In this document: positions 9,501-28,207 of the stretch, one piece after another
How the letters are laid out: each line of letters opens with the position of its first letter
How positions within the stretch are numbered: the first letter of the stretch is position 1
NCBI GenBank assembly: GCA_964551375.1
Contig: CAZKBG010000001.1
Span: 390,001-422,000, forward strand
Direction of reading: 5' to 3'
DNA length: 32,000 nt
From: an uncultured archaeon
GTDB taxonomy: Archaea > Iainarchaeota > Iainarchaeia > Iainarchaeales > JAAZKV01
Notes under the pieces: model-generated
Told to the model about the DNA's origin: nothing
The model's input: only the letters and a program-made list of their open reading frames with translations
The model's database searches: none
Translations under genes and position numbers: made by a program

Positions 9501-9579
9501 AAGACGCAGCTAATGCAGTCTGGAGAAATAAAAATAAAACTGCAAGGACTGCAAGAGAGAGAAAAAATTTATTTTTCAT
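6559..9579 (-). CDS. Giant (about 1000 aa) Cys-rich cell-surface protein with signal peptide, MopE-like CNGxDDDCDG motif and C-terminal TM anchor
   Basis: ORF track gives 6559..9600. The ATG at 9577-9579 yields a classical signal peptide (MKNKFFLSLAVLAVLFLFLQTALA). Cys-rich region at aa 87-245 includes EICNGADDDCDGSRDEG (8929-8979). Internal duplication around the motif DPDVF. C-terminus is TVPDSNPFVLIIVALVALFILLGRNKKGKKINL. Confidence 0.85.
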   Translation of the reverse strand: MKNKFFLSLAVLAVLFLFLQTALAASCVAPNATYTQGAMNITGGDYNCSYYYDKTRVPNGQPYFGQMYVGDFPFYNMYDSCDSPDLNYNEQMCVCTGDGDYCAKCKNGANKVNLCLDKSPSCCCSCTDGQCGAGNTQICNNCRWQASTCSVLNQCSGNFSQRCTGCEWAPSECSAIGVCKANTTGKKCNGCAYVNVSGVAEICNGADDDCDGSRDEGFQCINGTLNGDQTMFCNNSCVWEKVKLPPQATQRAAPYTTSIVSTATVLTINIVGECTANKTTIASANGCMWAVAPADCSIINSVVTSQNGGVVKINTAQLTCTNVNSRTFDLNLIATDSEGLITTTTTQVSITSIVCDPNAQFLNIQNTIPSIPQMSPSTDKNALSGSMRVYVGPVIDPDVFVTGQVLKYSGGVYIFGSPPTLAVPYSTSNSFVKSDLNRALDNCIMVSVFDGIIDVNSATSNCLPVVDNITIWNSTAGGQLQGTKYLRNHFNSGGDPGEELSCSFASHDADTPQINYTIKLFAKRPSMAPVVAGQASGTMLSGATVTVPFQITNYPSTSHTYPVGTRFYCSAEINDSFFNDVLSSASLSTWTPKGSWDGDTSAPNGYIEVVNTIPQKAVMASIDRDNLSRLIFTRVSSGVDPDVFIVAEGGQSLSYFARIFVADVNLPPASYGTNLIKGDFNTADSSGVFSQTLTMERDFCSEGRVFDGIEYSPVSNKKCSLETPFNPDCPDFTVVVSPPESVCVNNPEGKTSVISGISCARNNAHIDEDWNLGIFNAQVKNANQFVMPVSGFIGITDCNETVQTSRVVYDSNIEGIYSIEYYYGGLYNNVPLSCTKQIQVITKGCDSNNPVIYENNSSGCSSLGFLVSNLRILPKANNKTDVNFAISCTRQTAVNLITLKRNSAIVAQSYVNPSYNINCPAGSLVNVSSTFDSNAAGSYDLFIDFNSSACRAVASFNVSPAGVSLEIPKPETVTVPDSNPFVLIIVALVALFILLGRNKKGKKINL
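6562..6660 (-). other. C-terminal tripartite sorting-signal-like segment: TVPDSNPF motif, hydrophobic helix, Lys-rich tail
   Basis: Read from translation. Closely matches the C-terminus of the 26080..27273 protein (TIPDNNIFVLLVLLAGIIFIVTKNKGNKRLKK). Confidence 0.5.
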
Positions 9580-9583
9580 CCAA

Positions 9584-10468
9584 TCACTGACTTTGCTCAA
9601 ATGACCTTACTGCATAATTTGGAATTTGAGAAGTATCCTGTGAAGAAGCCGATACTGTAATATATCCGTCAGTGCTGTTTGCCACACAATAAAGTTTTCC
9701 CCCGACTTTTGCTTTAGGAACATCAAAAGTGTAACCTGCGGTTGTTCCGACATACTGCGGAGATTCTAAAAGCTTTGAAGTTGAGCCGTCTCGGTTAATT
9801 ACCCACAAACTTATCTTTGATCCAACAGTATCTCCATCTGCATCAGACACATCAACTTTGCAAAATATTCTGTCCTGAGCCGCGTTATAATTTAACATGT
9901 AATCAACAAAGCTCACCCCAATTCTTGCTGGAAGAGAGGCATTTTTAATTTCAATTTTTGAGATTACAGGAGGACGGTTTATAAGATAATTAATTGAGCC
10001 ATAATTTCTTCCGCCGGAGCAATCTTCATAATTTCCGCCGGAACTGGTAAAACTCACACCAAAACCCGATACTGTTTTCCACCCGGGGCTCATTGAAGCT
10101 AAAAAACTGCCCGCCCCTGAAGTCGCGCAATTAGTGCTCCTTAATACGCAACAGTTCAAAAGAGTCTTGCAGCCAACAGCACCTGTATTTCCCGGCTGAA
10201 CAAGAGCGCCTGAAAATAAGAAGCACCCATCAGCCAAGCCGTACTCCGCCTGTCTAATCCATAAATTTAACGAGTTTGTTCCGCCGTTAGCGCAAACTCC
10301 TCCTGAGCCGTAACCGTTTACAAAAACAGTTTCGCCAGGATTATACACATCTTTATTTGTAGCAAAAGAATAAACTGCATTGCCTGCATAAAATGTCGCC
10401 CCTGAGGCGCTTACAAATGAAGCAATTACTAAAAGCACCGCTAAAATTAATATTTTCTTAAACAACAT
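9584..10468 (-). CDS. Secreted protein (signal peptide, Cys-containing N-domain, Ig-like C-domain)
   Basis: 294-aa ORF with N-terminus MLFKKILILAVLLVIASFVSASG. The stop overlaps or abuts the start of the downstream giant gene. Confidence 0.75.
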   Translation of the reverse strand: MLFKKILILAVLLVIASFVSASGATFYAGNAVYSFATNKDVYNPGETVFVNGYGSGGVCANGGTNSLNLWIRQAEYGLADGCFLFSGALVQPGNTGAVGCKTLLNCCVLRSTNCATSGAGSFLASMSPGWKTVSGFGVSFTSSGGNYEDCSGGRNYGSINYLINRPPVISKIEIKNASLPARIGVSFVDYMLNYNAAQDRIFCKVDVSDADGDTVGSKISLWVINRDGSTSKLLESPQYVGTTAGYTFDVPKAKVGGKLYCVANSTDGYITVSASSQDTSQIPNYAVRSFEQSQ

Positions 10469-10475
10469 AATCGCC

Positions 10476-11780
10476 TCATTTTTTTGCTCTCTTTTTTATA
10501 ATTACCACAACTGCAATTATTATAATCAAAATTACTATTACTCCACCAATTAAAACTAAAACTCCCCCATTACCCATTCCGCCAGTCTGGGGTTCACTTG
10601 CTGGATCATATACTAAGCCAGTAACTTTTGTGAAGCGCTCTTCCTGACCAGGAGTTGAATTAAATATTTCAGCTTTCATCTCATCAAGAACATTTCCATT
10701 CTTTCCGAGAAGTTTTACTGTAACTACAGGATTAGGACAATTTGCATTAATTGGAACTGATAACTGGACAAGCCAGTCCTTATTTTTAGCCATTGCCTTT
10801 GATTCATTACTAGAACAGGATGTTCCATTAGAAGACAAGCTTGCTTCAACAGTCATTCCTTCAAACAAAGTTGTTTTTCTTGCGTTTGGATATGAATCTG
10901 CTGAAGGAGTCCAAAACACATTTAATATCGCATTTTCTCCTGTGGAGTAGCTTTTTTTATCAGCAGTAATATTTTGAACAGTCCCTGATTCTCCGCTCAA
11001 AACATAATGAGCAACTATTTTATTTGAAACTTCTTTTCCTGTTCCATCGACAAGAACTGCTACCACATCATAAGCCTGAGGTTTTACTGGGTTAGGAAGA
11101 TTAATTTCAAAATCAGGTTTTGCGCCGCTAAGTTCAATCACTTGAGCAGTATCATCAACTGCGGAAACTAATTCCCCATAAATACTTCTAAAATATGTTG
11201 AAAATTTTGGGTGAACGCTTATATTTCCAAGCCCGTTTTCAGAACTGCACGAAAGGCTTAATTTTTCATCAGCAGTAAAAGCAACCCCTTCAATTAAACT
11301 AAAAGTGTTATTTTCATCAGCAATTTTTATTTTGCAAAAAGAAGGCATTACTTCAATCATCCCTTTTGCTCCGCTTATCTGAACATCCCCAGCTCTTGCA
11401 ACTGCAAGCTCTAATCCTTTAGGATTTCTTACTGAAACCCAAACTTGGTAAAAACCATCAGTTAAATTTGAAAGACTTATATTCGCCGAAACCAAAACTT
11501 TAGAATTAGCATCAAGATTAATTATTTTATCAAACACTTCTTCAAACGCCACAAATTCGCCCTTTATTGTCGGCTTAATTAACTTCACGCCGTACTTCAA
11601 TTGAGGCTGATAATTTCCTGCATTTAGAATAGTAAAATTTACATCAAGTTGCGAGCCGGTCTGAACTGATTCAATGCTCACAACCCCAACATTTGCAACC
11701 ACTTGAGGCTCCTCTGCAAATGAAATTGAACAAACTGCAATAAGAAGCAAAAAAATTGCCAACACTTTTCTAAAATCCAT
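10476..11780 (-). CDS. Surface protein with signal peptide, repeated beta-sandwich (CARDB-like) segments and C-terminal TM anchor
   Basis: 434-aa ORF. N-terminus MDFRKVLAIFLLLIAVCSISFA. C-terminus GGMGNGGVLVLIGGVIVILIIIIAVVVIIKKRAKK. Confidence 0.75.
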   Translation of the reverse strand: MDFRKVLAIFLLLIAVCSISFAEEPQVVANVGVVSIESVQTGSQLDVNFTILNAGNYQPQLKYGVKLIKPTIKGEFVAFEEVFDKIINLDANSKVLVSANISLSNLTDGFYQVWVSVRNPKGLELAVARAGDVQISGAKGMIEVMPSFCKIKIADENNTFSLIEGVAFTADEKLSLSCSSENGLGNISVHPKFSTYFRSIYGELVSAVDDTAQVIELSGAKPDFEINLPNPVKPQAYDVVAVLVDGTGKEVSNKIVAHYVLSGESGTVQNITADKKSYSTGENAILNVFWTPSADSYPNARKTTLFEGMTVEASLSSNGTSCSSNESKAMAKNKDWLVQLSVPINANCPNPVVTVKLLGKNGNVLDEMKAEIFNSTPGQEERFTKVTGLVYDPASEPQTGGMGNGGVLVLIGGVIVILIIIIAVVVIIKKRAKK

Positions 11781-18793: not shown

Positions 18794-18868
18794 TGGTCGC
18801 TAGCGGATTTGAACCGCTGACCCCTAGTGTATAAGACTAATGCTCTAACCAGGCTGAGCTAAGCGACC
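18794..18868 (-). tRNA. tRNA-Ile (anticodon UAU), no encoded CCA
   Basis: Manual cloverleaf: acceptor GGTCGCT/AGCGACC; D-arm GCTC-AGCCTGGTTA-GAGC; anticodon stem TTAGT/ACTAG with loop CTTATAC; T-arm AGCGG-TTCAAAT-CCGCT; discriminator A. Confidence 0.85.
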
Positions 18869-22158: not shown

Positions 22159-22176
22159 CTAAATGACTTCATTTAG
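22159..22176. promoter_or_regulatory. 18-bp palindrome CTAAATGA-nn-TCATTTAG between the TATA-like box (22180-22188) and the thermosome SD/ATG; candidate stress-regulator operator
   Basis: Perfect 8-bp inverted arms read directly. Position fits an operator between TATA and TSS. Confidence 0.45.
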
Positions 22177-22280
22177 CCAAAATATAATCAGTCAATACTT
22201 AAGTAAAAGTCATAAAAAAGGAATAAAAAGGTTGCTGTACAGGGGTAAAAGAGATTTATGTTAGGCCAATTTACAGTTCC

Positions 22281-23138
22281 TTAACCGTTCTTGCAGCACC
22301 AAATATCAAGCCTATAAGTCGCATGCGAATGGTTAGGATCATACTCAAAACAACCATTTCTAACTCCATCAGGATTCATTACTCTTTCCAAATAAGTATT
22401 CTCCCCTCCAAGACCAGTTCTTGATGAATTAAAAGCCGTGCACGCACCATCTGAAGCACAACTGTAAATGGTTTCAAGATAAGTTTCTGGAGCGGAGTCA
22501 TCAACCATGTTGCAACTGAAAAGAATTGGATAAGAACTAGGACAATAAAGCACAGCATCCTTGCTCATTGCGGCACCTCTTTTCCAAGTGCACTGCTGGG
22601 TAATCATAAATACTGTTGTCCCAGCAACAGTTTCATCAGCAGCACAAGCCCAAAAAGAACCATTCCACTTTACAACCTGACCGGCAGAACAGGAAGGCAG
22701 AGTAGTCCCAGAATTATCCGATGAGCAAATCCAGGTAGTTCCATTATATTTCAAAACCTGACCATTGGAACAAGAAGGAAGGCTGCCGGCATTATCACTT
22801 CCGCAAACCCAAGCTCCTGATTGCCATTTCAAAACCTGCCCGTCCGAGCAAGAAGGAAGCCCAGTAACTGATACAGAAACCCCTCCGCAAACCCAAGAAT
22901 TTTGAGCACTGCTCCACTTTAACAAATTTCCATCAGCACAGCTGGCAACACTTGTTCCGCCATACTTAGCAAGCAAAACATTATTGCTATCCACTACTGA
23001 TTCAACCCCAACCGCAACCTGTGAAAATTGATGAAACGGACGAGATTGATCAACATTCACCGCGACAGTGAAAATTACTCCAAGAACAAGAACAAAAAAA
23101 ACAATCACTATTTTATCAAAACCGCTAAACGAAACCAT
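22281..23138 (-). CDS. Fibre-like surface protein P1: conserved N-terminal anchor module, 4 Cys-bracketed GQVLKW repeats, Cys-rich C-terminal domain
   Basis: 285-aa ORF. N-terminus [23 protein letters not shown]...PFHQFSQVAVG. Repeats such as LPSCSDGQVLKWQSGAWVCGSDNAG. Confidence 0.8.
   Translation of the reverse strand: MVSFSGFDKIVIVFFVLVLGVIFTVAVNVDQSRPFHQFSQVAVGVESVVDSNNVLLAKYGGTSVASCADGNLLKWSSAQNSWVCGGVSVSVTGLPSCSDGQVLKWQSGAWVCGSDNAGSLPSCSNGQVLKYNGTTWICSSDNSGTTLPSCSAGQVVKWNGSFWACAADETVAGTTVFMITQQCTWKRGAAMSKDAVLYCPSSYPILFSCNMVDDSAPETYLETIYSCASDGACTAFNSSRTGLGGENTYLERVMNPDGVRNGCFEYDPNHSHATYRLDIWCCKNG
22629..22949 (-). repeat. Four tandem ~26-aa coding repeats (CxxGQxLKWxxxxWxC) in P1
   Basis: Cys pairs C67-C84, C97-C112, C123-C138, C150-C165 in my count of the translation. 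Confidence 0.75.
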
Positions 23139-23192
23139 CCAATCAAATCCTAATTAAATAAAAAATACTTTAACTTATCTAAACATTATCAA

Positions 23193-23972
23193 CTATTGCC
23201 CGCAAATAGGAGAAGCGCCAGCAGAATAAGTCCCGCATGTTGAAATCGCTGATGACTGCGTCCAAGTTCCATTAGCATTGCAAGTCTGCCGATAAACATT
23301 CCACCACTGCATTCCAGCGCAAGGAATTTGAGTAAAACAAAAAGTTCCTGCGCTATAAGTTTTTCCATTCCAAGTGCAAGGCGCAACACCAGCAGGACCA
23401 GCAGGGCCAGTTGGACCAACAGGACCTTGAATACCCTGCGCACCAGGAGCACCATTAGATCCGTTAGCTCCGGCAGGACCTTGAATACCCTGCGGACCTT
23501 GAGGACCAGCAGGACCAGGAGGACCAGCAAGCAAATCTCCGCAAATCCAAGCGCTTCCATTATACTTCAAAATCTGCCCGTTAGCGCAAGTTGGCAAAGT
23601 CACACCAGCACCGCCAGCATTATCCGTTCCGCAAGCCCAAACACTTCCATTAACTTTCAAAACCTGCCCATTAACACAAGTCGGCAAACTAACTCCAGCA
23701 CCGCCAGAATTGTCAATCCCGCAAGTCCAGCTCCCGCTAGCGCCGCCGCTCCACTTTAGCACATTTCCGTCTGCGCAATAAACAACCCCTGTTCCCCCAA
23801 ACTTTGCAAGAAGAATATTACTATCCGCTACCGACTCATTCCCAACGGCTATTTGAGAAAATTGATGATATGGTCTTGATGGCTCAACATTTAACGCAGT
23901 AGCAAAAATTACTCCAAGAACAAGAACAAAAAAAATAATTAGAATTTTATCAAAACCGCTTAAAGAAGCCAT
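23193..23972 (-). CDS. Fibre-like surface protein P2: same N-terminal module, 3 GQVLKW repeats, collagen-like triple-helix segment, small 8-Cys C-terminal knob
   Basis: 259-aa ORF. N-terminus [23 protein letters not shown]...[11 protein letters not shown]. Also [25 protein letters not shown] and [22 protein letters not shown]. Confidence 0.85.
23388..23525 (-). repeat. Collagen-like G-X-Y repeat, 15 uninterrupted triplets (aa 150-195 of P2)
   Basis: [46 protein letters not shown] read from the translation. It generates spurious ORFs in other frames. Confidence 0.85.
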
Positions 23973-24075
23973 GTTTATAGTAAAGCTTTTGATTATTTAA
24001 ATATTAGTTTAGCCAAGCAATAACAAAGTATGCAATAAATACCTAATATTAATTCGTGCTAACCTAAATCAATTA

Positions 24076-24654
24076 ATGAAATTCACAAAAATTAAGCAGA
24101 TTGCAAAAGGATGGAGCTCTTACGTGTGGCTAGTACAGACAGAGAGCGGAAAAGAGCTTGTGCTAAAAGAAGTGCGCGAGAAGAGCCCAAGAAAAGACTT
24201 GGCGGAGAGAGAAGGAAAAATGCTTTTGCTTGCAAACAGAGTCGGCGTTGGCCCAAAAGTCGAAGAAGTTAACTTTGAAGAAAATTATGTTATTATGGAA
24301 CTCGTGAAAGGAAAAAAACTGCTTGACTGGATACTGAGCGAAGAGTTTGAAAAAAACATTGCAAAAGAAGAAGTCTGGGAATTTTTAAAAAAGCTCTACA
24401 AACAACTTCTTTCGCTTGACTCAATTAATTTAAGCCACAATCAGCTCCAAGTCGGAAAAAACATTCTTGTAGTCGAACAAATCGGCAAAAACCTTGAAAG
24501 AGAATTTATCCCAGTGATAATTGATTTTGAAAAAGCGTCAATAAAAGAAAACAACCGCACAAAAAACATAGGACAGATTGAAGCATTCCTCTTTTACAAC
24601 CCTCATTCAATTGTAGCGCAGAAATTTAGAGCCAAGTTTGAAGTCGCGCTCTGA
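24076..24654 (+). CDS. Small Bud32/RIO-like protein-kinase-fold protein with substituted catalytic Asp (possible pseudokinase or ATPase)
   Basis: 192 aa. Gly-rich-loop-like IAKGWSSYVW, VAIK-like LVLKEV, hinge VIMELVKGKKL. The catalytic loop is SHNQLQVGKNILV instead of H-x-D-L-x-x-x-N. DFG-like IIDFEKA. Confidence 0.55.
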   Translation: MKFTKIKQIAKGWSSYVWLVQTESGKELVLKEVREKSPRKDLAEREGKMLLLANRVGVGPKVEEVNFEENYVIMELVKGKKLLDWILSEEFEKNIAKEEVWEFLKKLYKQLLSLDSINLSHNQLQVGKNILVVEQIGKNLEREFIPVIIDFEKASIKENNRTKNIGQIEAFLFYNPHSIVAQKFRAKFEVAL

Positions 24655-24700
24655 AAATTAGAGTTAAGAAGAAATTAAAATTAAAAAGAATTAATGCTGC

Positions 24701-26044
24701 TTAAAAATCACAAACACTGATTAAAAAATAAACATACGCATTCCAAGTGCTGTTTGATTGAAGATAATAAACTGAATTCGGGCTTGATTCTGAAAATCCA
24801 TAATCATCCCAAATATCAAGACCTTCATCCCAGCCGAGGAATTTTTTATTAACTCCGTCCCCGTTAACTCCGGTATTGTCTCCGTATGCGTCATGCCAAT
24901 AATGAACATTTGAAATATTTTTCTGCCTAAACATTACAGGATAGCTTGTGTAAAACTTTGCGCCCGCTGGACGATAACTAGCGCCTCGAGTATCATACTT
25001 CCAAATTCTATAAGAACAACCGTCATCATCCTCGCAAATATTTCTGCCGTTTTTTATTAGTGAAATAACTCCATTCTGCCCATTAGTTGCAGTATCAATA
25101 GTGTTGCAAAAAGTAACTGCGCTGCTTTGAGTCATAGACGTGTTTGTAACTGTAACCGCTCCTGTTGAAGCGCTCACGCTAATACCAGCCCCAGCAGCAA
25201 CGCTAGTAACGCCAGTATTTGAAACTGCAACATTTCCTGTTCCGCCTGCTGGATTTACACTAATTCCAGTTCCTGCAGAAACTCTAGTCACTCCAGCCGC
25301 GCCAACATCATCACTCGCACAAGCCCATGTTGTTCCATTATGCTTCAAAACCTGCCCGCTCAAACAAACAGGCAATGGAGTTCCGCCAGTTGAAACTGCC
25401 CTGGGACAAAAATAAGATACGGTTCCAACAAGATTTGTATAAGTAGAATAATCAGTGCCGTCATTATGCCTATATATGGCAATTCCCCCATTTTCAAAGA
25501 CAGCAGATGTCAATCCTGAATAAGTGTGCACTGTGCCACCAGGATTATTTATAGTCCCCATTCCCCAAAATCCGTTTCCGCCCGGATTTATTGACTTCGC
25601 TGCAACCGCACCGCCTTCAGCAGAAAAAGTTGATAAAACACCAACACACCCAGCGCTTGGAAGTCCTGCTGAACAATCAGCAGCAGTCCAACCATAACTA
25701 GCCCAGCCACCATAAGAATATACAAATGTCTTAGAACAAACAGTATTCAAATCAAAAACAGTTGTTGAGCCAGCTCCGCCTGAATTATCAGCACAAATCC
25801 AAGACCCGCTTGAACTGCCAGTCCATTTTAGTGTCTGCCCGCTGCTGCAAAATGGAACTCCCGTACCGCCGTACTTCGCAAGCAGAACATTATTATCAGA
25901 AATCGACTCTACACCAACCGCAACCTGCGAAAACTGATGAAAAGGCTTTGCGGGGTCAACATTACCCGCAACAGTAAAAATTACTCCAAAAACAAGAACT
26001 AAAAAAAGAACAAGAATTTTATCAAACTTGCTGAACGAAACCAT
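24701..26044 (-). CDS. Fibre-like surface protein P3: same N-terminal module, GQxLKW repeats, G[TA]GISV beta-helix-like repeats, aromatic-rich C-terminal domain
   Basis: ORF track gives 24701..26053. I prefer MVSFSKFDKI (ATG ending at 26044) by homology to P1 and because TTTATAAA lies at 26062-26069. Contains LPVCLSGQVLKHNGTTWACASDD and VSAGTGISVNPAGGTGNVAVSNTGVTSVAAGAGISVSASTGAVTVTNT. Confidence 0.8.
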   Translation of the reverse strand: MVSFSKFDKILVLFLVLVFGVIFTVAGNVDPAKPFHQFSQVAVGVESISDNNVLLAKYGGTGVPFCSSGQTLKWTGSSSGSWICADNSGGAGSTTVFDLNTVCSKTFVYSYGGWASYGWTAADCSAGLPSAGCVGVLSTFSAEGGAVAAKSINPGGNGFWGMGTINNPGGTVHTYSGLTSAVFENGGIAIYRHNDGTDYSTYTNLVGTVSYFCPRAVSTGGTPLPVCLSGQVLKHNGTTWACASDDVGAAGVTRVSAGTGISVNPAGGTGNVAVSNTGVTSVAAGAGISVSASTGAVTVTNTSMTQSSAVTFCNTIDTATNGQNGVISLIKNGRNICEDDDGCSYRIWKYDTRGASYRPAGAKFYTSYPVMFRQKNISNVHYWHDAYGDNTGVNGDGVNKKFLGWDEGLDIWDDYGFSESSPNSVYYLQSNSTWNAYVYFLISVCDF

Positions 26045-26079
26045 TATTACCACAATAATTATTTATAAAATATTTTTAA

Positions 26080-27273
26080 TTACTTTTTCAGCCGCTTATT
26101 GCCTTTGTTTTTTGTAACTATGAAAATAATCCCTGCAAGAAGAACTAATAAAACGAAAATATTGTTGTCAGGTATTGTCTGATTCTCGCCCGGCGCTTTT
26201 GTCACAGGGAAGAAAGTATCTTTCATGCATTTTCCAACGCTAAGTCTTGCAAAGAAAGGATTTCCCGAAATTGAAGAAGGAATTTTAAAATTATTAAAAT
26301 CTTTTTCAATAGTTCCGCAATTTAATCCATTCACTTCCTTAAGCACATTTCCCATAGGGTCAAAAATTATTATATTTGCGTCAAGGTTATTATATTTACA
26401 AGCGTATTTTAGCAAAACATTTGTGTCATAATAAATTTTTCCCGCTTCAAACTTTGAAATATTACAATCCCCGCCAGGACCCGGAGGAGTAACTGGCCCG
26501 CTGCCGCCCGCTGCAATGTTAAAAGTAATTACTGAAGAAGGACATGCTGGAGTGGAGTTTCTTGTAATAATTGCAGTAAAATCCTTGCTTGAGAGCCCGC
26601 CCATATTCAAAGTTGATGAATTAATATCAAATGTTGTCACAACTGGAGAACACTGGTTTGAATCTTTTCTAAAAAAGTTCAAATTATCAGGCCCGATTAA
26701 AATATTCATGTCAACTGAAGCCGGAGAGCCGCCTATGCACTGATAGCTGAAAATAATTTTTTCCCCAACCGTGTAATATGATTTGTTTGTAGAAAAATTT
26801 GTTGTTGCAGGACAAGCAGGCGGAACCAGCGGAGCTTTGCAGCAGAATTTTACTTCCTCTGCCCCGAAAATATTGCATGAAGACAAATGAGCATTAGTAA
26901 AATCGCTTAACCCGAATTTGCAGCTATCCCCCGCAGTGCACGCAGCGCCTTTTGCGGTGTAATAACAATTTGCTGTAAAATAAGCTGAGTTCATGCAGAT
27001 ATTATTATCCCTATAAAATGCATACGCATTTGTTTCAGCATGAGCATTAGTAGGGTCGCTTAAGCCAAGAACTCTTACAGAGCCCGCAGTGCCGCAGGCA
27101 GCAGCGCCTGTTGAGTCAATCATTGCAATATTAGTGTAACCGCAAAGACCATGCCCAGTTTTGCAAGCATGCGATTCAACTGAACTGTTGTAATATGATA
27201 CAAGCGGAACATCAGCCGCAAAAACAAGCGAAGCCGCAATAAGGATAAACAATAGGATAAGTAATTTCTTCAT
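26080..27273 (-). CDS. Cys-rich surface protein with signal peptide, two GLSDxTNAH repeats, two Ig-like segments and C-terminal TIPDNNIF-TM-Lys-rich anchor
   Basis: 397-aa ORF. N-terminus MKKLLILLFILIAASLVFA. Also VLGLSDPTNAHAE and KFGLSDFTNAHLS. C-terminus TIPDNNIFVLLVLLAGIIFIVTKNKGNKRLKK. Confidence 0.8.
   Translation of the reverse strand: MKKLLILLFILIAASLVFAADVPLVSYYNSSVESHACKTGHGLCGYTNIAMIDSTGAAACGTAGSVRVLGLSDPTNAHAETNAYAFYRDNNICMNSAYFTANCYYTAKGAACTAGDSCKFGLSDFTNAHLSSCNIFGAEEVKFCCKAPLVPPACPATTNFSTNKSYYTVGEKIIFSYQCIGGSPASVDMNILIGPDNLNFFRKDSNQCSPVVTTFDINSSTLNMGGLSSKDFTAIITRNSTPACPSSVITFNIAAGGSGPVTPPGPGGDCNISKFEAGKIYYDTNVLLKYACKYNNLDANIIIFDPMGNVLKEVNGLNCGTIEKDFNNFKIPSSISGNPFFARLSVGKCMKDTFFPVTKAPGENQTIPDNNIFVLLVLLAGIIFIVTKNKGNKRLKK
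26083..26178 (-). other. C-terminal tripartite sorting-signal-like segment (TIPDNNIF motif, hydrophobic helix, Lys-rich tail)
   Basis: Matches TVPDSNPFVLIIVALVALFILLGRNKKGKK of the 6559 gene. Confidence 0.5.
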
Positions 27274-27382
27274 TTAACTCAATACTAAGAAAAACTTTCA
27301 AATATAAAAACATGACTAAATGACGCTTTAAATGAAATTTTTGAGAAAAATTGGAAAAACCCATAAAAAAAACAGGCTTTTT

Positions 27383-28207
27383 TTAAATTTTGAATTTATG
27401 GTTAACTTCAACTATTAATAAATCGCAGATTGTTCTCATTGATTCCATCTGCTGAATAATTCTTTCCTTCTCAAGCTCAATTTCACCCACAGCTTCATAG
27501 GGTTCAACTGATTCCTTAAACATAGATCTGTCAATGTAAGGATACGGATAGGAATCCATTTTCTTTGAAACTTTAGCAACTAAATTTCCAAGCCAAACAT
27601 TCAACCCTCTTTTAACAGGACCCTTAATTGTTTTCTTGTCATCAAGATGCTTTCTTAATTTATTAGTAATTGTAGCTTTTGGAAAAGGCAAATCATCCTG
27701 CTCAAGCTTTAATGAAACAGCTTTTGATTTTGCTTCAGCGTCAATCTGAGAAATAACAGCATCGCACTCAACTTTTATTGAATTTATCTTCTTGATTAAC
27801 TCTTCGCGCTGTTTGTTTATGCTTTGAAGATCGTCATAAGGCGCAATTGAATCTTTTAACATGTCATAATTAACGTAAGTATAGGGCTGGGAGTTCATTT
27901 TTTTTGCAATTCTTTCAACCATGGTGTTAACCCAAAGGTTCATTTCATCCTTAACAGTCCCCTTAATCTGCTTTCCTTTTGAAACGTTTTTTCTAACCAG
28001 ATTAGTTATTGTTGCTCTTGGAAAAGGCAGTTTTTCATCATCGCCTTCAGCCCCGTTTGATTCGGAAACTGCGCCATTATCATCATCAGCATCATCAAAA
28101 TCAGATTCTTCAAGCCCAGAAGCGTCTTTTTCATCAGCATTTACTTCTTTTTCCATATCCTCGTCCTGCTTAACTGCGTCCTTTTTAGCCTGTTTTTGTT
28201 CAACCAT
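27383..28207 (-). CDS. Internally duplicated protein with two histone-fold-like (DUF1931-like?) units and a ~58-aa highly acidic N-terminal tail
   Basis: 274-aa ORF. Units L60-D156 and L173-N269 align without gaps (LPFPRATITNLVRKNVSKGKQIKG... / LPFPKATITNKLRKHLDDKKTIKG...). The first ~62 aa of each can be threaded onto the helix-loop-helix-loop-helix layout of HMfB. The fold assignment is tentative. Confidence 0.4.
   Translation of the reverse strand: MVEQKQAKKDAVKQDEDMEKEVNADEKDASGLEESDFDDADDDNGAVSESNGAEGDDEKLPFPRATITNLVRKNVSKGKQIKGTVKDEMNLWVNTMVERIAKKMNSQPYTYVNYDMLKDSIAPYDDLQSINKQREELIKKINSIKVECDAVISQIDAEAKSKAVSLKLEQDDLPFPKATITNKLRKHLDDKKTIKGPVKRGLNVWLGNLVAKVSKKMDSYPYPYIDRSMFKESVEPYEAVGEIELEKERIIQQMESMRTICDLLIVEVNHKFKI
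27401..28030 (-). repeat. Two ~97-aa coding repeats (27740-28030 and 27401-27691)
   Basis: Gap-free alignment at roughly 40 percent identity, done by eye. Confidence 0.8.

Follow-up and report, generated by a model that had tools for sequence, protein, structure and literature searches.

Three candidate surface-fibre genes with a common N-terminal base and exchanged tips in a hypervariable island of an uncultured archaeon

What kind of protein begins in nearly the same way in three neighbouring genes and then ends in three unrelated ways? This question is raised by a 32,000-nucleotide stretch of contig CAZKBG010000001.1 (assembly GCA_964551375.1, positions 390,001 to 422,000 of the forward strand; hereafter the window, with positions counted from its first letter) from an uncultured archaeon of the Iainarchaeales. 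A preliminary description made from the DNA letters had presented three minus-strand genes of this window, here called P1, P2 and P3, as a cassette of tail-fibre-like proteins with an N-terminal membrane anchor, a shared stalk module and unrelated tips. To our knowledge, the recognition of and attachment to partner cells by DPANN archaea is largely unknown, and there are few candidate molecules for uncultured groundwater lineages. We found that P1, P2 and P3 belong to a rare, undescribed protein family of uncultured small-genome (DPANN-type) archaea, in which a common base is joined to very different distal modules. We give an even chance to the view that these proteins are secreted, cysteine-stapled homotrimeric fibres for adhesion or recognition, which would dock through the shared base and whose tips are exchanged.

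The three open reading frames (ORFs) were found on the minus strand as first described, at 22281-23138 including the stop codon (P1, 285 aa), 23193-23972 (P2, 259 aa) and 24701-26044 (P3, 447 aa). The P3 frame reaches a GTG at 26053, and the ATG at 26044 yields an N-terminus that matches those of P1 and P2. All three were recovered with a profile of the N-terminal module (N-module; hidden Markov model expectation value [E] of 5e-38 for P1) and by a repeat scan, together with Pfam for P2 and similarity searches for P3. The first ~65 residues of the proteins could be aligned almost gap-free, which confirms the nearly identical ~62-aa module reported for all three genes. Among five close members, 40 columns of this alignment were invariant, and P34, H36 and Q40 were nearly invariant among 30 members. 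At the DNA level, the 31-nt run reported as common to P1 and P2 was exact at both sites (23071-23101 and 23905-23935), and a third copy with 2 mismatches was present in P3 (25977-26007). Judged by 100 shuffles, no such 31-nt copies are expected by chance.

Beyond this common start the layouts differ. P1 opens with a leader (signal peptide or anchor, aa 1-26, 23061-23138) made of MVSFSGFDK, a 14-residue hydrophobic core and TVA. This is followed by the base module as delimited by alignments (aa 27-62, 22953-23060: VNVDQSRPFHQFSQVAVGVESVVDSNNVLLAKYGGT), by four Cys-bracketed hairpin repeats (aa 63-172, 22623-22952) and by an orphan tip of 113 aa with 8 Cys (aa 173-285, 22284-22622). In P2, the predicted signal (aa 1-26) and base (aa 27-61) precede three Cys hairpins (aa 62-147), a collagen segment (aa 150-195) and a 6-Cys knob (aa 196-259). 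P3 has the same predicted signal and base (aa 1-26 and 27-61), then a hairpin (aa 62-90), an insert (aa 91-221), a second hairpin (aa 222-250), GTGISV repeats (aa 251-300) and a beta-rich tip (aa 301-447).

The extent of the family was determined by an exhaustive HMMER search, at E<1e-3, of 1.84 billion (1.84e9) cluster representatives with a 66-position profile of the N-module. This search returned 29 proteins, 19 of them below 1e-10, and in 27 of the 29 the match began within the first 9 residues. The exceptions were P0034, a 102-aa fragment that starts inside the hydrophobic stretch, and P0038, a repetitive protein matched at residues 69-90 and in three stretches, which is probably a spurious match. 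P1, P2 and P3 were the only members on the 946-kb source contig, and a profile scan of all window ORFs likewise gave these three. No matches were obtained in IMG/VR or in a first JGI scan with the P1-type module; a second JGI scan, with the module of a sister subfamily, did find members. Two subfamilies could be distinguished, one of the P1-P3 type (...H[QD]F[SA].Q.A.G.ES...LLAKYGGTG) and a second with ...H.LQQ[IV]...S[VI]D.DGDG.ID. Common to both is NVD..[KRQ]P[YFW]H...Q, often together with an n-region reading M.FS.FDK.

Searches of Pfam, NCBIfam and PHROGs with P1-P3 and with CysTM, a Cys-rich protein encoded next to them, gave only the P2 collagen and weak sub-threshold matches. Nothing meaningful was obtained from PDB sequence searches, either with single sequences (P1, P3 and CysTM) or with profiles (N-module and P3 tip); the best E was 0.011, for the P3-tip profile, and all others were at least 0.33. 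Literature searches found no description of the fibre family. The initial remark that the module does not correspond to a described family is therefore upheld, since neither module nor repeat has a match in Pfam, NCBIfam, PHROGs or PDB sequences. Moreover, the module is no single invariant copy among relatives. It carries collagen followed by a Cys knob (P0026, P0028, L008 and L020), a Gp10_C domain (4.6e-9) with a tail Collar domain (3.9e-5) in P0037, a 632-aa Cys-rich array in P0025 and many orphan domains. The logic of shared base, repeats and variable tip, first read from three genes, holds across the whole family.

We then considered whether the hydrophobic N-terminus is a cleavable signal peptide or the permanent anchor of the preliminary description. 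When 40 non-identical members were aligned on the P of PxH, position -1 (8 residues upstream of this P) was A or S in 28 of them, and position -3 (10 upstream) was A, T, V, S or G in 36. This small-x-small site sits between a ~14-residue hydrophobic core (h-region) and the conserved NVD, so that the leader has an n-h-c organization. Some members have plain leaders, such as MKKWLL...VIA/QSSNVD in L023 and ...LAFA/ATGDVD in L017 (the slash marks the predicted cleavage site), and a site of the same type is found in the canonical signal peptide of CysTM. Because of the classical -3/-1 pattern after the hydrophobic core and directly before NVD, a Sec signal peptide cleaved after the small-x-small site is more likely than a permanent anchor, and the membrane anchor first described, which was interpreted rather than observed, is doubtful. 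Together with even Cys totals (16, 12 and 12 in P1, P2 and P3, respectively), the n-h-c leader with its conserved -3/-1 site suggests an extracellular location of P1-P3.

It is possible, although we do not favour it, that the leader is instead an uncleaved signal-anchor, which would make P1-P3 type II membrane fibres rooted by three N-terminal helices, with tips pointing outward and no docking partner. Indeed, AlphaFold2 (AF2) predicted one continuous helix in P1 (residues 6-27) with a block-mean predicted local distance difference test score (pLDDT) peaking at 95 at residues 11-20, and P1-P3 are without a C-terminal anchor. M-x-F-S-x-F-D-K is also conserved far beyond ordinary n-regions, which suggests that it is retained and functional, and the anchor model is kept alive because this strong conservation is unexplained. 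However, the core measures just ~14-18 residues, and the small residues at -1 and -3 before NVD occur in nearly all members. The plain MKK-type or AFA/A leaders and the same kind of site in the undisputed signal peptide of CysTM also speak against anchoring. A class III (type IV pilin-like) signal was rejected, as there is no [KR][GA] site before the hydrophobic stretch; most members have F-[DN]-[KR] in this place, and the residue ahead of FDK varies (G, K, S, E, N or R in 40 sequences).

A second leader type was observed on P0067, P0068, P0069, P0015, P0016 and P0020, which are other DPANN-type small secreted proteins. It consists of MK.x.N.x.K, a hydrophobic stretch and PGHSLSTIEG, GHSFSEIE or GGTHNYAEVG, resembles the P-x-H...Q[IV] of the fibre base, and at times precedes the same Cys hairpin or a P3-type tip.

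The part between base and tip is built from a Cys-bracketed unit of ~26 aa, LP.C..GQ[VI]LK[WY].G..W.C..DN.G, with four copies in P1, three in P2 and two in P3, where they flank the ~130-aa insert. The first copy is a variant in all three genes, with a longer Cys-Cys spacing and no LP start. The repeat was recovered both in the proteins and at the DNA level, where five 90-nt copies showed 61-72% identity to a reference copy; the number of copies per protein is 2-4 rather than the 1-4 given initially. An AF2 monomer model of P1, based on a 30-sequence alignment, had a mean pLDDT of 59 and a predicted template modelling score (pTM) of 0.25, with the tip below 50. It contained four beta-hairpins (pLDDT 70-84) coinciding with the four repeats. 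A disulfide stapling each hairpin is plausible, since each Cys pair brackets one modelled hairpin. Of the repetitive shaft proposed at the outset, the repeats as predicted beta-hairpin beads can be kept; a shaft is not proven by the monomer model.

After the repeats, the tips of P1, P2 and P3 are unrelated to each other, in line with the complete divergence reported for them. Homologue searches with the P1 tip detected none, the positional orthologue in the sister genome included. The P2 collagen segment (23388-23525) comprises the 15 GXY triplets described before (PF01391, 6.8e-9), whereas the knob behind it (23196-23387) was found to contain 6 Cys (residues 199, 212, 218, 231, 246 and 257) instead of 8. 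This knob recurs in P0028, again behind collagen, and, with no collagen before it, in P0005 (BLASTP 9e-8 and 5e-5, respectively). In P3, the G[TA]GISV repeats mentioned earlier were found as two G[TA]GISV...NTGVTS units (25145-25294). The tip that follows (24704-25144) also occurs on P0004, on P0045, which belongs to the other stalk subfamily, and on short proteins of Nanoarchaeota metagenome-assembled genomes (MAGs) with a different N-terminus (P0067-69), that is, on three different N-termini. In an AF2 model from 6 sequences it was almost entirely beta-strand (pLDDT 70, pTM 0.69). As a separate matter, a target of a diversity-generating retroelement was rejected, as no reverse transcriptase domain was found among the window ORFs scanned and no template repeat was present; direct repeats within 22200-26100 are limited to hairpin units, collagen codons and the 5' ends that the paralogues have in common.

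Exchange of tips could be followed in a sister MAG (uncultured archaeon binchicken_co115_24; L001 and L002), which carries the same three genes in the same order. The thermosomes of the two genomes are 96.7% identical in the 541 aa aligned by BLASTP (96.3% in a 546-aa alignment). Identity is 84% for the kinase-like protein, 82% for the histone-like protein, 66% for CysTM, 51% for P3 and P0004, and 67% for P1 and P0002 over only the first 145 aa. The tips of P1 and P0002 are unrelated (E 24), and so are the inserts of P3 (25382-25774) and P0004 (BLASTP E 0.23), the flanks of which align. Thus, replacement of tips, which shared 5' ends had been thought to allow, was seen directly at orthologous loci of genomes with ~96-97% identical thermosomes. 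Nonsynonymous divergence (dN) between the sisters was 0.03 for the thermosome, 0.10 for the kinase-like and histone-like genes and 0.15-0.48 for the fibres; synonymous divergence (dS), at ~0.65-2.4, was saturated. The first ~90 nt of P2 were 84% identical to a paralogue versus 67% to the orthologue (p=0.013); other pairs were not significant.

More distant relatives differ in the presence of the genes themselves. In genomes with thermosomes 93.5%, 89.9%, 87.1% and 86.8% identical to that of the window, the slot that lies between thermosome and histone-like gene contains no member of the family; it holds giant Cys-rich proteins, pilin-like adhesins with a class III signal (QG/TIEYL) or a LamG-like protein. 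A relative at 77.6% thermosome identity does carry a fibre gene in the slot. From these contents, the slot at 22173-27382 (with equivalents in L024, L025, L026 and L030) is a hypervariable surface-protein island in which the fibre family is patchily distributed. Its flanks are housekeeping genes, with isoleucyl-tRNA synthetase, an MscS-like protein, guanylate kinase and thermosome on one side and a duplicated conserved histone-like protein on the other; Alba and NUDIX genes are also among the window neighbours. The order of the housekeeping genes (thermosome, guanylate kinase, isoleucyl-tRNA synthetase, histone-like) is conserved in at least 8 genomes. The GC content at third codon positions (GC3) of the fibre genes is 0.29-0.32, the same as in neighbouring genes, and their higher overall GC comes from codon position 2. 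A recent horizontal acquisition is not supported, since with GC3 equal to that of the neighbours there is no sign of a recent foreign origin.

Fibre genes were also observed in another setting. In the P0005/P0006 branch they flank SepF and adjoin Cdc6 (L007 7870-8640 and 10001-11050; L003 10001-11080), and of the two paralogues, P0021 is found in one genome of this branch, whereas a close relative lacks it at the corresponding position.

Immediately upstream of P3 is the gene for CysTM, a Cys-rich, C-terminally anchored surface protein (26080-27273, minus strand). Its Sec leader is followed by a Cys-rich N-domain, in which the motif S[DE]xTNAH occurs twice, and by a variable middle part; the C-terminus is formed by an IPDNN motif, a transmembrane (TM) helix and a basic tail. 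In nine loci (the window, L002, L009, L010, L011, L012, L013, L017 and L022), the gene next upstream of a fibre gene encodes a CysTM homologue. A profile of the N-domain detected it at eight of the nine, and L010 has, at the edge of its contig, no more than the C-terminal end; the same profile found nothing in three fibre-less relatives. Conservation of the gene pair in nine loci, and its joint loss from relatives without fibres, lead us to consider CysTM the leading candidate receptor for the shared base module, a role suggested by gene order and co-loss. The C-terminal tripartite shape of CysTM is similar to sortase and archaeosortase sorting signals, although no NCBIfam model matches.

From these elements we propose the following scheme. 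The proteins would be exported by the Sec-type N-terminal signal and then cleaved at the small-x-small site. Cleavage would expose a base module of ~36 aa, NVD..RPxH..SQ.AVG.ES..D.N.LLAKYGGTG, followed by 2-4 Cys-closed beta-hairpins and by an interchangeable distal module. Collagen, which is obligately trimeric, is found in P2, P0026, P0028, L008 and L020. Since one base is combined with collagen in several members of the family and with tail-fibre-type repeats or a tail-collar domain in others, assembly into a parallel homotrimer would be most likely. The base module may fix the fibre to the cell envelope, possibly on CysTM. Ligands of the distal modules would lie outside the cell and could be, for example, partner-cell, host-cell or particle surfaces. 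Tip replacement and the presence/absence pattern were observed in the genomes; exchange may proceed by recombination within and after the repeats, which would give strain-specific repertoires in the hypervariable island. Recognition of a host by an episymbiont is one role that the fibres might serve in this uncultured archaeon, represented here by a contig of ~0.95 Mb. Phage tail fibres and BclA-type filaments already follow this design principle of a shared base, a shaft of repeats and tips that can be swapped.

Several points weigh against this proposal. Secretion, disulfides, trimer state, surface location and ligand are all properties that we infer. The AF2 monomer of P1 (pTM 0.25) shows no shaft geometry, and the P3 tip model, which had no Foldseek match in PDB or BFVD, shows no known receptor-binding fold. 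The n-region M-x-F-S-x-F-D-K is unusually conserved, which an ordinary cleaved signal peptide does not explain. CysTM is absent as a neighbour at the P0005/P0006 loci and at L008, as far as their available sequence extends. Moreover, tblastn of the repeat region and of the C-terminal half of P3 against 50,697 phage records found nothing, and the link to tail fibres is consequently drawn through metagenomic proteins with tail-fibre Pfam domains. Synonymous divergence is too saturated for positive selection to be shown, and gene conversion of the 5' ends within the genome is weakly supported by the P2 comparison given above.

How close, then, is the likeness to known fibrous proteins? Like P1-P3, phage tail fibres are built from a conserved N-terminal part for attachment, a shaft of repeats and C-terminal modules for binding that can be exchanged. 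At E 4.5e-9 over the whole database, the P1 hairpin repeat matched P0011, which has an Mtd_N domain and whose own repeats, GQVLK[FWY].G..W, are Cys-free. P1 also matched P0016, which has a TM leader, YadA_head and Peptidase_S74 (E 8.8e-5), and the GTGISV...NTGVTS units of P3 matched the Peptidase_S74 proteins P0061, P0064 and P0066 (E 1e-4 to 9e-4). On direct reading, KYGGTG-x5-G[NQ].L resembles NGGTG......G[QN]VL in the Peptidase_S74 matches of P3. In P1-P3 themselves, none of Peptidase_S74, Collar, Gp10_C and Mtd_N was found by Pfam at E<=1. The tail-fibre likeness on which the cassette was first described is thus real, through shared repeats and the Collar/Gp10_C tip of P0037, and it is only indirect. 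As far as can be judged from sequence, the relation is one of shared building blocks and not of membership in a phage protein family, because the tblastn search of phage records was empty and the N-module is absent from IMG/VR. P1-P3 further differ from phage tail fibres in being chromosomal beside housekeeping genes and in having a Sec-type leader, putatively Cys-stapled repeats and no S74 chaperone; we know of no virion proteins with a Sec-type leader. A cryo-electron tomography study notes tail-fibre-like 'antennae', which there belong to the host cell of another DPANN system (PMC11329633).

Two other known systems share general features with P1-P3. The YadA trimeric autotransporters are likewise modular fibrous adhesins with exchangeable heads, and P0016, which shares repeats at a distance, has YadA_head repeats. 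However, Pfam detected no head, stalk or beta-barrel anchor domains of the YadA type in P1-P3, the two kinds of protein are oriented in opposite ways, and there is no outer membrane in an archaeon. Archaeal class III pilin-like filaments also combine an N-terminal hydrophobic helix with a conserved N-terminus, and genuine pilin-like genes occur in the island of relatives, but in P1-P3 the small-x-small site comes after and not before the hydrophobic core.

P2 and several relatives are closer in layout to BclA of the Bacillus exosporium and to Scl1 and Scl2 of streptococci, which have a short N-terminal targeting part, collagen and a C-terminal knob, with the targeting part shared between paralogues and a presumed function in a surface nap or in adhesion likewise. 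Outside GXY there is no sequence similarity, and NCBIfam models for SclB, Lcl and SclA scored 24-30 bits against cut-offs of 325-500, through collagen only. The PDB match of P2 to BclA (1wck) covers aa 148-195, the collagen alone, as do its matches to PDB collagens, and no C1q/TNF-like domain was detected by sequence. Moreover, base and collagen are separated by Cys hairpins, P1 and P3 are collagen-free, the knob has 6 Cys, and neither the N-terminal exosporium motif of BclA nor LPXTG is present. This likeness bears on an explanation that we consider unlikely, namely that P1-P3 form a generic BclA-like envelope coat, a hair-like nap serving hydrophobicity, protection or phage shielding, in which tip variation is escape from viruses or grazers. 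It would account for the targeting part, collagen and knob of P2 with its match to BclA, and for the fast evolution and presence/absence variation typical of virus-receptor surface proteins. Yet collagen is found in one of the three proteins only, tips of the family include receptor-binding-type domains such as Collar/Gp10_C, and total absence from relatives with 87-93% identical thermosomes is unexpected for a structural coat.

With a conserved N-terminal export or trafficking part, polymorphic C-termini and tandem paralogues, the genes could also be taken for secreted receptor-targeted toxins or bacteriocin-like effectors, with C-termini exchanged as in polymorphic toxins. P2 even had a match to an NCBIfam lectin-like bacteriocin, although this was non-significant (E 0.012, 15 bits versus a 275-bit cut-off). 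We find this very improbable, as no tip has a recognizable toxin or enzyme domain, no immunity-like small genes follow the tips, and the collagen, fibre repeats and Cys knobs of the tips are what one expects of structural binders. That P1-P3 serve an archaeal virus, integrated or episomal, as its receptor-binding proteins can practically be dismissed: their repeat types and the Collar/Gp10_C tip are common to proteins with phage-tail-fibre Pfam domains, but housekeeping genes flank them in an order conserved in at least 8 genomes, the 32 kb contain no capsid, portal, terminase or integrase gene, the N-module is without a match in IMG/VR or phage records, and GC3 is the same as in the neighbours.

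If P1-P3 are indeed secreted recognition fibres, the family offers small, expressible candidates with a defined conserved base, a natural tip library and a candidate partner protein. As island content differs between near-identical genomes, specificity at the strain level would be testable, and the use of tail-fibre-type modules by a cell, behind a Sec leader, bears on the exchange of modules between viruses and cells. More speculatively, and with a rather low probability in our view, the system could be a cellular counterpart of a phage baseplate. CysTM would then be a membrane-anchored pedestal, with a sorting-like signal of its own, on which interchangeable homotrimeric fibres dock through the NVD..RPxH..Q module of ~36 aa. 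Swapped within a dedicated hypervariable island, tips, possibly of viral origin, could re-target the host or partner range of a tiny symbiotic archaeon.

Several other features of the window were noted. Between P2 and P3, on the plus strand, lies a 192-aa APH/Pkinase-like gene of Bud32-like size (24076-24654). It is probably a housekeeping gene outside the fibre system, because fibre-less relatives have kept it in this position. The ORFs at 23189-23560 (minus), 23328-23759 (plus) and 25140-25415 (plus) overlap P2 or P3 in a different frame or from the opposite strand. Their translations are Leu/Val/Arg-rich and of low complexity, and they are by-products of Gly/Pro/Ala-rich coding, not genes.

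The C-terminal module of CysTM, with an Ig-like stretch, (T)IPDNN or VPDN, a TM helix and a basic tail, is common to 26080-27273, to 6559-9600 (minus strand) and to L024 2445-5945. Indeed, the last 110 aa of the CysTM proteins, used as a profile, matched the ORF of 1013 aa in the window at E 0.004 and the L024 protein of 1177 aa at E 2e-12. The 1013-aa protein (6559-9600) is Cys-rich, has a weak MopE-like motif and is part of a possible envelope or secretion cluster at 5226-11780 (minus strand), together with a HerA/DUF87-like ATPase (5226-6533) and orphan proteins (9584-10468 and 10476-11780). ARAGORN predicted a tRNA-Leu(TAG) at 4203-4287 and a tRNA-Ile(TAT) at 18794-18868, both on the minus strand; of the two, tRNA-Ile alone attains the Rfam gathering score for tRNA. 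Finally, the minus-strand gene at 27383-28207 encodes a 274-aa protein with two tandem units of ~110 aa (LPFP[RK]ATITN..RK...K.IKG.VK..LN.W...KKM.S.PY) behind an acidic N-terminus. This protein belongs to no Pfam family, is present in every relative examined and is 82% identical in the sister genome.

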